Source: an uncultured delta proteobacterium
GTDB lineage: Bacteria > Desulfobacterota > Desulfobacteria > Desulfobacterales > JAHEIW01
Assembly: GCA_963706575.1 (NCBI GenBank)
Contig: CAVPNL010000015.1
Location: 320,001-384,000, forward strand
Direction of reading: 5' to 3'
DNA: 64,000 nucleotides
The translations under genes were made by a program, and so were the position numbers. Below are positions 38,990-44,755 of this stretch, piece by piece; positions within the stretch are counted from its first letter, which is position 1, and every line of letters starts with the position of its first letter. Below the pieces are notes generated by a model. The model saw only the letters and a list, made by a program, of their open reading frames with translations. It did no database searches and was not told where the DNA came from.

Positions 38990-39316
38990 TTAATTATCTT
39001 CAAATATCCAAAACGATACCGCCGCGCCCGCACCGTCCAAAAACAACTGTTTAAACTTCCAAATACCTTCAGTGGTCAAAGTCAAGGGGCCCAGGATCTT
39101 AATATTCCTGGCCACGAAGACATGGTAGCCTTCCACCACAAAATATCGGTAACCCGAAGCATCCGCCGGCGCCTGGTATACCGGTTCAATCTCTTTTAAA
39201 ACGCCCTTTGGTTCAGCGCGACAAAGATTAAACGTTACGTCTGTAATTCCCTTTTTCTGCATAAATTTTTTCGCGGATGCGGAAAGCTTTATTTTTGTAA
39301 TTCCCATTGAAAACAT
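38990..39316 (-). CDS. Small HesB-like-fold hypothetical protein (CC/Se-motif family-like, motif absent)
   Basis: IKLSASAKKFMQKKG...P...Y...VEGYHVFV...KQLFLDG pattern. Confidence 0.6.
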   Translation of the reverse strand: MFSMGITKIKLSASAKKFMQKKGITDVTFNLCRAEPKGVLKEIEPVYQAPADASGYRYFVVEGYHVFVARNIKILGPLTLTTEGIWKFKQLFLDGAGAAVSFWIFEDN

Positions 39317-39396: not shown

Positions 39397-39437
39397 AAAA
39401 AAATAACGGCTAATCGATTTTTTTCGATTAGCCGTTA
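39397..39437 (-). terminator. Intrinsic terminator of the candidate sRNA
   Basis: TAACGGCTAATCGA / TCGATTAGCCGTTA perfect stem followed by a U7 tract on the minus strand. Confidence 0.85.
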
Positions 39438-39473
39438 AGGAGGAGAACAGATGAAGAAATTATTAGGCTGCAA
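39397..39473 (-). ncRNA. Candidate sigma54-dependent small RNA (~75 nt) with anti-SD seed
   Basis: Lies between a sigma54 promoter and a 14-bp-stem terminator; contains UUCUUCAUCUGUUCUCCUCCUU; no minus-strand ORF. Confidence 0.65.
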
Positions 39474-39483
39474 ATGAAGTAAC

Positions 39484-39563
39484 TGCAAAACCCTTGCCAA
39501 AGATAATTTCGCTCGGCGAAATTATCTATTTTTATTATTTTTATTTTAAAATTCAGGTAGTTA
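39484..39563 (-). promoter_or_regulatory. Sigma54 promoter with IHF-like site
   Basis: Minus strand TGGCAAGGGTTTTGCA (39499-39484); ATTCAGGTAGTTA (39551-63) in AT-rich DNA. Confidence 0.75.
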
Positions 39564-40058
39564 TAAATATTAAAATTCCAGCATCGCTGCTTTCACAAAT
39601 AATATGGGGCCCTAAAATTTAGGGGTTCAGTTTATAATTTTTAACCGAATATATCTGAAAATGGAAAAACCTGTTGTTTTTAAACATTTTTTTTATTATT
39701 GGGTGAGGTTCAAAATTTTGAACCACGGCTTTTTTTGCCGGGCAAAAAAAGCATAACTCATTAAAATTAATATATAAAATAGAGTTTATGGCTTTGAACC
39801 CGCCGTGTGTTAGACGGAAAAAAATCCGATAATGGATCCTAAACCGGACAAGGCAGAAATCAATATAAATCTCACGTAAAGACGTCAAAACGCCAGGTTT
39901 TTCATAAATTCCAGCGTGAAAATTTTTCGTCTTGCGAGTTTGCGCGCTTTGCCCGCCGACGCTAAAGCTATGGCGCGACACGCAGCTTTGCGTACTAGCA
40001 AATACCGAGCAATTATCAGGCCAATTTTTTATTGCAGCGCTCATATAACTTAAATCGT

Positions 40059-42579: not shown

Positions 42580-43011
42580 TCTGTAAGATCTCAATATTTC
42601 AGACCGGTGGTTTTATGTAACCGGTTATTCGAAAGTCAATTTTTTGCACATCCTATAACCATCCTAAATTTATACATATTTTTACTAAGGCGAATTAGCG
42701 AACAGCATAATTTCGCGCCTTTTTTTGATTTTTTGCTCAAATTCACCATTATTCATTCCCGAAAAATTATAATTTTAAAAATTTGTTGACTTTTTCCCAT
42801 GCATAAATAAGGATTCTACCCGGTGAAAAAGCCTATCCATGCACGGTAAATTAAGGTGTCACTTTTAGCGGTATAAATCCGTGCTATTAAAGCATTCATT
42901 ATGGACAACTGGAAAGTCGTCAAGGTTCGTGTAAGGGCTTTAAACAAAGCCTTAGTTTAACCGAAACCAAAGGAGGAGAAGGTTAAAACTTACTAACCGA
43001 AAGGAGGAATT

Positions 43012-44755
43012 ATGGGTGCTTTAGCGATTATGGTGATAGCATTCGCCGGGTACATTATCATGTACCAGTTGTACGGCAAGTTTATCGGCGCAAAGATTTT
43101 TGCGCTATCCGGCGCTGCTAAGACCCCGGCGGTTGAAATGGAAGACGGGGTCGATTATGTCCCGACCAAAAAAGAAATTATTTTTGGCCACCACTACACC
43201 TCGATTGCCGGAACCGGTCCCATCGTCGGGCCAGCCGTTGCTGTAATCTGGGGCTGGATGCCGGCCCTGATCTGGGTGTTTGTGGGCAGCATTGTGATGG
43301 GCGCAGTGCATGATTTCGGTGCCCTGATTATTTCGATGCGCAACCAGGGAAAATCGATTTCCGAATACACCGCCAAGTATGTCAACAACCGCACCAAGAT
43401 TTTCTTTTTCCTGATCGTCTTTCTGGAATTGTGGATCGTGATCGCCATCTTCGGGCTCGTGATCGCCGTGGTGTTCAACATGTATCCGACATCGGTACTG
43501 CCGGTCTGGCTGGAAGTCCCCATTGCCATATATCTGGGCTATTTGATTTACAAGAAGGGCGCCAACGTGATGACCTGGTCGATTTTAGCTGTTATTGCTA
43601 TGTATGTAACGGTGGTCATCGGTGCCTACCTGCCGATCAAGCTGCCCACCATCGCCGGTATTCCACCCACCGGTGTGTGGACCATCATCCTGCTGGCATA
43701 TGCCTTTATTGCATCGGTTTTGCCGGTTACCACCCTGCTGCAGCCGCGTGACTTTATCAACTCCCACCAGCTGGTTGTGGCTTTAGCATTGTTGACATTG
43801 GGTGTCCTTTTTACGGGGTTCGGTGGCCGGCTGGATATCGTAGCGCCAGCTGTGCAGCTCTCTCCACCTGAATCACCGCCGATGTGGCCCTTCTTGTTTA
43901 TCACGATTGCCTGCGGGGCCATATCCGGATTTCATTCCCTTGTATCCTCTGGCACTTCGGCCAAACAGGTGCGCGACGAGCAGGATTCGCTGTTCGTGGG
44001 TTACGGGTCCATGCTGCTGGAAGGGGTGCTGGCGACCCTTGTGATCATCGCCGTTACAGCGGGAATTGGAATCGGCTACACCGCCAAGATCGGGTGAAGC
44101 ATTCACCGGTATCGCCGCCTGGACAGCCCACTATTCATCCTGGGCTGCTATAGGAGGTATCGGAAACGCTGCCCGCGCATTTGTTGACGGCTCGGCCAAT
44201 ATGATCGCCACTCTCGGTATTCCGAAGCAATTCGGCGTCGTCATCATGGGTGTATTTATCGCCTCCTTTGCCGGAACCACCCTGGATACGGCCACCCGGA
44301 TTCAGCGCTACGTGATCGCCGAGCTGTTCGGCGGCCTCAACCTGAAAGCGCTGACCAACCGCTACGCTGCCACCTTTGTCGCGGTAGGATCGGCCCTCAT
44401 ACTGGCATTTGCAACCGGAGCCAGCGGAACGGGCGCGCTCAAACTGTGGCCGCTTTTCGGCGCCGTCAATCAAACCCTGGCGGCCCTGGCGTTAATTATT
44501 ATCACCCTGTATCTGAAACGCCGCGGTGGTTTGAAGTGGCTGGTTTCCGGCATCCCTGCCGCCTTTATGGCGATCATGACCATCTGGGCGGTTATTCTGA
44601 ACCAGGTTAAATTCGGTGCCGGCGGAAATATGCTCCTGACGGTGATTAATCTCTGCATTCTGATCATCGCGATCTGGATTGCGATTGAAGGCGTCATCAA
44701 ATTCTTCGTAACAGAAGAAGAACCGGCTGCGCCAGCCGCACCGGAAACAGCGTAA
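43012..44755 (+). CDS. cstA: Carbon starvation protein A transporter (frameshifted near 44090)
   Basis: DGVDYVPT, FGHHYTSIAGTGPIVGP, GAVHDF, LLQPRD, ACGAISGFHSL; second frame FAGTTLDTATRIQR, LWPLFGAVNQ. Confidence 0.9.

Follow-up and report, generated by a model that had tools for sequence, protein, structure and literature searches.

The 64,000-nucleotide stretch of DNA considered here (the window; positions 320,001 to 384,000 of contig CAVPNL010000015.1, from an uncultured bacterium of the Desulfobacterales) contains, on its minus strand at 39473-39397, a candidate gene for a small RNA (sRNA) whose 5' part is complementary to a Shine-Dalgarno (SD) sequence followed by a start codon. The locus raises the question of whether this is a gene at all and, if so, which messenger RNA (mRNA) its product recognizes and which regulator switches it on. 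Judged from sequence comparison, the sRNA gene is real, and its product is probably (at a probability of roughly 0.7) a trans-acting, base-pairing, non-coding output of a conserved two-component system, repressing the translation of a porin. The family is apparently undescribed, and its predicted target and putative activator are well supported. In the literature searched, no sRNA was described for Desulfobacterales and no description of this one was found, an unnamed entry in supplementary sRNA catalogues being possible.

The RNA gene and its sigma54 setting

Transcription of the putative sRNA would start from a sigma54 -24/-12 promoter, TTGGCA-N6-TTGCA (TTGGCAAGGGTTTTGCA, with GG-N10-GC spacing), on the minus strand at 39500-39484. 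The preliminary description of the locus had placed a promoter here with a spacer of seven nucleotides; the box is there, with a spacer of six. Its TGGCA and TG elements are invariant in 26/26 aligned sequences, which were selected for having the box, and rpoN is present in the genome. By the usual 12-nt rule for sigma54 transcription starts, the first nucleotide was placed near 39473, giving a predicted RNA of about 75-77 nt (39473-39397). The conserved seed, a CU-rich stretch of about 35 nt (39471-39438), stays largely unpaired when the RNA is folded; it reads as the complement of codons 2-5, the AUG, the spacer and the SD, and extends into the base of the following stem (to 39434). The intrinsic terminator (39437-39397) consists of a perfect 14-bp stem (39437-39404) with a 6-nt loop and a U7 tail (39403-39397). 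Both the unstructured stretch and the terminator agree with what was first described. The 77-nt RNA folds with z = -5.97, which none of 200 shuffles equalled, and its strand contains zero AUG. Since a strong hairpin with a U-tail follows only 2 of the 127 TGGCA-N6-TTGC boxes of the genome, the anatomy of the sRNA exceeds chance. Rfam 15 gave no match in the 64-kb window at gathering threshold, and at E ≤ 1 none on the sRNA element in loci L093, L031, L198, and L123; the element of L129 showed a weak suhB match below gathering (E 0.072).

The conservation of promoter, seed, and terminator, proposed earlier as a check, was observed. Full-length homologs (E < 1e-34) occur in 18/21 genomes of the genus and in all three other genomes of the family. 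The alignment shows a fixed box, then 10 nt of free variation, a conserved seed, and a U-tail on the minus strand. Terminator changes are double-sided in 10 of 13 base pairs and 95% of the cells are paired, a level reached by 0/500 shuffles in a test that is inflated by sequence relatedness. A covariance model, R1, trained on 26 sequences that contained the promoter, matches the window at 39398-39500 with 115 bits, this sequence belonging to its training set. At E ≤ 0.01, it matches 122/151 genomes of the order, mostly in one copy and up to four, a count that includes the training genomes and a few weak matches to a sibling RNA or a target site. In a sample of the phylum, R1 found 11/121 genomes, eight of them outside the order, with weaker matches. 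A seed-pattern scan returned at least 118 loci; among the matches listed, 100 are of sigma54 type, nine of sigma70 type, six are gene starts, and three are unclear, and most of the 80 titled loci among them belong to Desulfobacterales, two of the sources being Desulfosarcina widdelii PP31 and D. cetonica. The sRNA is repeated, in tandem or otherwise, in G070:C1, G109:C1, G113:C2, G093:C2, and G106, its sigma54 copies being spaced 290 bp to 2.7 kb from one another, with up to four matches per genome.

The same region could be read from the opposite strand, with the functional unit being a plus-strand mini-ORF (MKKLLGCK) behind a strong SD, or the leader or attenuator of a neighbouring gene. The perfect plus-strand SD-ATG, a 12-bp inverted repeat abutting the -24 box (39501-39527) that could form a second hairpin, and the occurrence of antisense MKKLL in 17 of 51 model-found loci speak for this possibility. 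However, the peptide varies after three to six residues, its frame shifts (MKNY, MKIIRL, MRNYQA), its length ranges from 4 to 63 aa, and the SD-ATG pattern is missing in 9 of the 51 loci; the U-tail and the promoter lie on the minus strand, and only some close relatives keep the second hairpin. Since neither the identity nor the orientation of the gene downstream of the sRNA is constant, the unit is not a leader. The mini-ORF, whose role as the functional unit the preliminary description had named among the findings that would overturn its proposal, is not conserved, and this reading, which we regard as scarcely credible, can be considered largely refuted. Selenocysteine read-through of the mini-ORF was also considered and rejected, the frame not being conserved.

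The region upstream of the promoter shows the layout expected of enhancer-dependent transcription. A predicted IHF-like site, ATAAC-N4-TGAATTT (39564-39549), identified by its consensus, occupies the interval between promoter and enhancers; it had been noted before, and lies in a conserved alignment block. Genes of the IHF/HU family are present in the genome, none of them above the himA cut-off. Further upstream are an imperfect GGTTCA-N6-TGAACC palindrome (39629-39646, about -148 from the -24 box), a distal copy, GGTTCA-AAATTT-TGAACC (39707-39724, about -225), and a third, weaker copy (39783-39800) seen in the alignment of 20 relatives. Among 117 distinct upstream regions, many of them from close kin, 88 carry the perfect GTTCA-N6-TGAAC dyad at about -225 and -148; when mismatches were allowed, 106 had this palindrome (A) only, seven only a second type (B, GTTTCCA-NN-TGGAAAC), two both, and two neither. 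The genome has 60 A-like sites, and only that of the window has a sigma54 box after it. LexA boxes were rejected as the identity of the palindromes: their consensus is a different one, and an enhancer fits both the sigma54/IHF layout and the covariation with a regulator helix described below. Taken with the alignment, the terminator covariation, and R1, the palindromes support the initial proposal of an enhancer-controlled, sigma54-dependent sRNA directed against SD and start codon. A second sigma54-type box (40009-40023, minus strand), directed at the enhancers, is present in 13/22 close loci within otherwise variable DNA. Downstream of it, a depth-21 contig of RNA run X1 spans 39636-39910, which is a weak hint; a second structured RNA in this interval was rejected, only the palindromes and A/T blocks being conserved.

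The predicted porin target

In duplex scans of the own genome, with open reading frames, starts, and signal peptides called heuristically, two alleles of a porin-fold gene ranked 1-2 of 6513 start regions. Among the 1966 start regions with a clear SD and at least 100 aa they ranked 1-2 as well (z -6.3 and -5.3), with a gap of at least 4.5 kcal/mol below them; with five shuffles of the 5' part of the seed, the alleles fell to ranks 3-55. The computed duplex of about 37 nt (-41 to -45 kcal/mol) covers the SD, spacer, AUG, and codons 2-6. A signal peptide and a terminal Phe are present in the protein, whose structure model (pLDDT 74) matches trimeric porins, DcaP best (E 5.8e-15), then OmpT, Omp32, and OmpF. 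NCBIfam assigned no family to the two own alleles, and its DESULF_POR1 match to the G052 protein was below cut-off; Pfam matches were below cut-off as well. The gene adjoins mutL and occurs on three allelic contigs, one frameshifted. The three gatA-mutL-porin alleles in one assembly (contigs C6, C19, and C20; loci L032-L034), whose porins are about 84% identical, suggest strain-level porin diversification. In another locus (L178), a porin-like gene has in its leader, about 25-45 nt before the start, a second stretch that complements the 5' portion of the sRNA. Several features of trans-encoded base-pairing sRNAs were found in the element: a promoter and terminator of its own, conserved independently of its neighbours, lack of coding capacity, and an unpaired seed that is conserved and complementary to the mRNA of an unlinked gene.

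The seed and the porin start region have changed together. Both partners were available in 44 genomes of 26 families, the porin being taken as the best profile match regardless of pairing (G062 was dropped from the paired set, its start being unresolved). The residual of the own pair is below 0 in 38/44 genomes (permutation with one genome per family, p=1e-5). The RNA base opposite the third, synonymous position of codon 2 is concordant with the codon in 36 of 39 genomes, five without the pattern being skipped: C with AAG in 20, U with AAA in 16, U with AAG in two, and C with AAA in one. This match persists in the low- and high-GC halves of the set and in the halves with low and high Lys-AAG usage. 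Codon 3 also tracks the RNA in G066, G083, G138, and G170, the last having a perfect 27-nt sRNA-porin complement in which both partners differ from those of the window genome. On the regulator tree, each trait changes seven times and both jointly eight times, with 5-6 of 7 independent pairs changing in the same direction and none in the opposite one. When partners were swapped between nearest families, own pairs were better in 11/13 cases (p=0.022). Coevolution of the seed and the porin start region is shown by these comparisons, and the pairing itself is computed.

The preliminary description had envisaged a global repressor whose seed suits MKK starts in general, cstA serving as the example. 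In this view, the sRNA would repress many exported or transport proteins with a strong SD and an MKK start, the porin being merely the most visible among them. The seed does complement a generic strong start, and the sRNA occurs in many genomes with no detected porin. The enrichment of exported targets is modest: 25 of the top 100 targets have a heuristic signal peptide against 11.6% (p=1e-4), as do 11 of the top 50, where shuffled seeds give 5-7; the five of the top 25 are not a significant excess. MKK starts in the own genome are written ATG-AAA-AAA 56 times and ATG-AAG-AAA 12 times, and as the matched AAG form is the minority, the sRNA fits the porin rather than the typical start; the energy gap after the two porin alleles points the same way. 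As to cstA, the 11-nt complement in its leader (42970-42980, plus strand) exists, yet it has 10 genomic occurrences and a separate SD stands directly before the cstA ATG. When the scan window was 49 nt, the gene ranked 241 of 1966; at 86 nt it ranked 8 of 1966, which favours a broad repressor. The site is not conserved, being absent from the leaders of G012 and G034. It may be a strain-specific secondary site. As a conserved target cstA was rejected: it was found in 2/5 relatives, and both readable leaders lack the upstream site (-22 kcal/mol). In the window, cstA (43012-44755, plus strand) is split into two overlapping frames, perhaps by an assembly indel. On balance, a broad repressor seems rather unlikely, and the generic tuning is not supported in the form first suggested; secondary exported-protein targets are plausible.

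A further explanation is that the RNA acts as a decoy, an anti-SD mimic or sponge for another RNA or for a protein such as KhpA/B, its match to the porin going back, by descent or by conversion, to an inverted copy of the leader of that gene. The near-perfect complements of 27-30 nt in G170, G052, and G161 do resemble copying. A sibling RNA, with the same anti-SD/anti-AUG core, a different 5' part, and a TTGACA (sigma70-type) promoter, also favours it, lying at most 830 nt from khpA on the same strand in 13/13 loci. However, the match has been kept over about 26 families while both partners changed, and such persistence requires selection on the pairing; moreover, G-U wobbles are tolerated (two cases) and C-A mismatches are rare (one case). 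We hold the decoy to be very improbable. The sibling was found in 18/22 genomes of the genus and in 0/79 others searched; its own-genome copy (L031:5004-5120, minus strand; G000:C6:89030-89119) stands beside an extra khpA gene. Its target scan gave no clear outlier, the porin alleles ranking 9 and 18 of 1966, and a first scan with a longer seed gave noise.

The putative activator and related systems

The regulator that would drive the sRNA as a repressor of the porin is suggested by gene order. In 21 of the 117 loci, the sRNA lies directly behind a gene for a sigma54 response regulator, which is preceded by that of a membrane histidine kinase. In 20 of these 21 loci, the best match of the regulator in the own genome is one and the same gene (59-80% identity), and this gene is the best match for all compared regulators above 200 aa but one. 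It encodes an NtrC-type protein (C6:400508-401881) with its kinase at G000:C6:398663+. The regulator is single-copy in 48/48 genomes, and three genomes outside the order have the complete kinase-regulator-sRNA cassette. In the window genome, the sRNA has been relocated away from the regulator, which there abuts a TPR gene that elsewhere follows the sRNA. The own pair (L335:728-7615; G000:C6:395700-402600) is divergent from an operon that we take, from sequence likeness, to be pilM-N-O-like, and is followed by the convergent TPR gene.

The DNA-binding domain agrees with the enhancers. One position of the recognition helix is W, Q, or Y with palindrome A (13/13) and K with palindrome B (6/6) in the 19 adjacent loci. 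Helix and palindrome types agree in 34/34 genomes (those of 47 tree rows for which the helix was parsed and only one motif class occurs); G100 and G149, in which the genes are separated, are among them. The own regulator carries Q, and the window carries palindrome A.

Several observations weigh against the reading of the sRNA as a porin repressor under this regulator. The agreement between helix and enhancer amounts to only about two changes on the tree. GC content and Lys-codon bias correlate with both coevolving traits, and a Lys-usage control by itself gives 3-5 of 7 same-direction pairs with 0-2 opposing. Swaps within families carry no signal (three favour the own partner, three tie, seven favour the swapped one), and the strict tree test is powerless because only one independent pair lies on well-supported branches. 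In 9/44 genomes (G154, G149, G081, G175, G040, G064, G054, G123, and G127), foreign pairs are on average stronger than the own one. The duplex energies ignore target accessibility, and any strong SD with an MKK start pairs with the seed. The porin family was found in 53/151 genomes and the sRNA in 122, so many carriers have no porin detected by this query. Finally, contigs from RNA runs (nine runs with shares of at most 0.05, four of them compared with the locus) represent relatives, mostly below 95% identity, with genes and spacer covered alike, and the same-sample run gave 0; they speak neither for nor against a transcript.

Among sRNAs driven by sigma54 or enhancers are Qrr (under LuxO and sigma54), GlmY, CrcZ, and AbcR, some with sibling copies and, in the AbcR type, with anti-SD seeds; they depend on Hfq or another protein and have other targets. 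Unlike the Hfq-dependent AbcR, Qrr, and MicF, the sRNA of the window has no Rfam match and a host in which no Hfq was detected. The Hfq search gave 0/1 for the own genome and 0/101 for genomes of the order, its positive controls being detected in 5/14; several genes with KhpA/B domains are present in the genome. MicF and MicC are porin-repressing sRNAs. So are FoxI of Fusobacterium nucleatum, MicA, RybB, VrrA, and MicV, and FoxI is described as acting on other envelope mRNAs as well, in a host without Hfq (PMC9546586). The sRNA studied here would resemble FoxI, MicA, and RybB, as portrayed there, in pairing in trans over the start region of a porin mRNA. In contrast to the sigmaE-driven FoxI, MicA, RybB, VrrA, and MicV of that account (PMC9546586), it has a conserved sigma54 box with enhancers; it also differs from the sigmaE type in a dedicated two-component system, a pairing of about 35 nt, and the lack of Rfam similarity. 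It may be regarded as a new family of porin-repressing sRNAs with new sigma54 wiring.

A close parallel in gene order is Pxr of Myxococcus, with PxrK and PxrR (Nla19), an RNA of 108 nt with three stem-loops, processed and described as restricted to Cystobacterineae (PMC5684412, PMC5568312). As presented there, it shares with the present system a kinase, an NtrC-like regulator, and, about 260 bp downstream, an sRNA with its sigma54 promoter, as well as the absence of Hfq and tandem paralogs in some genomes. The Pxr-like placement holds for the 21 adjacent loci and not for the window's own. Unlike Pxr (RF01812), the window sRNA has one hairpin and 77 nt, and RF01812 gave no match in the Rfam searches above, nor in a further one that had no positive control. 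These papers leave the targets of Pxr unresolved (PMC5684412, PMC5568312). Desulfovibrio vulgaris has four sigma54-dependent non-coding RNAs (ncRNAs; DVU0653, DVU0679/Dv_sRNA2, DVU1419, and DVU2359), whose function is given as unknown in PMC3333781 and PMC4641369. That organism is also a sulfate reducer using sigma54 regulators, and two of its ncRNAs, as described, lie just downstream of their own regulator. All four binding motifs, as published, differ from palindromes A and B, and the DNA-binding domains for DVU0653, DVU1419, and DVU2359 differ from the recognition helix found here.

Two further elements were noted. An unrelated candidate sigma54 sRNA (L390:1979-2087; G000:C3:224477+) combines a TGGCA-N6-TTGC box, a CU-rich anti-SD stretch, and a strong terminator, and has matches in 21/41 genomes, including 18/24 other family members. 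In the window at 38990-39316 (minus strand), a protein found in only some relatives resembles the CC/Se-motif family NF041239 (below cut-off) and lacks the CC motif.

Proposed mechanism and its meaning

It is proposed that the membrane histidine kinase, in response to an envelope or periplasmic cue (the signal being a guess), would activate the single-copy NtrC-type regulator. This regulator, as synteny and covariation suggest, would bind the two GGTTCA-N6-TGAACC palindromes, and looping by IHF would allow opening of the sigma54 promoter. An RNA of about 75 nt would then be made, its open seed and single terminator hairpin being seen in sequence and covariation. Its seed is predicted to cover the SD, spacer, AUG, and codons 2-6 of the porin mRNA and so block translation without Hfq. 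The sequence features, their conservation, and the two covariations are established here; transcription, binding, repression, the signal, and a chaperone are the parts of the scheme that we infer. A few other mRNAs of exported proteins would likely be weaker targets.

If the proposal is correct, a full testable circuit, from sensor, activator, enhancer, and promoter to RNA and target, would have been obtained from sequence, in a group with culturable Desulfosarcina strains. The seed and the porin start would constitute a rare natural record of sRNA-target coevolution over many families, down to the level of a synonymous codon, and a model of how an sRNA may repress without Hfq, KhpA/B being candidate helpers. 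A wider view can be offered only tentatively, and we consider it doubtful as a whole: an ancient kinase/sigma54-regulator/sRNA module of Desulfobacterota may be the main outer-membrane permeability switch of complete-oxidising sulfate reducers, the output of the regulator being essentially the sRNA alone and the long duplex constraining synonymous codons of a hypervariable porin without Hfq, so that a protein-DNA code and an RNA-RNA code would both be legible in genomes. In the genus, the basal level would come from the sigma70 sibling linked to KhpA. The module may also share its origin with PxrK/PxrR/Pxr of Myxococcus, in which case mRNAs of envelope proteins would be pointed to as targets of Pxr. 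For the organisms themselves, the finding suggests a way in which sediment bacteria tune their porins, a matter of relevance to the uptake of substrates and, as an inference, perhaps to the entry of toxins and phages.
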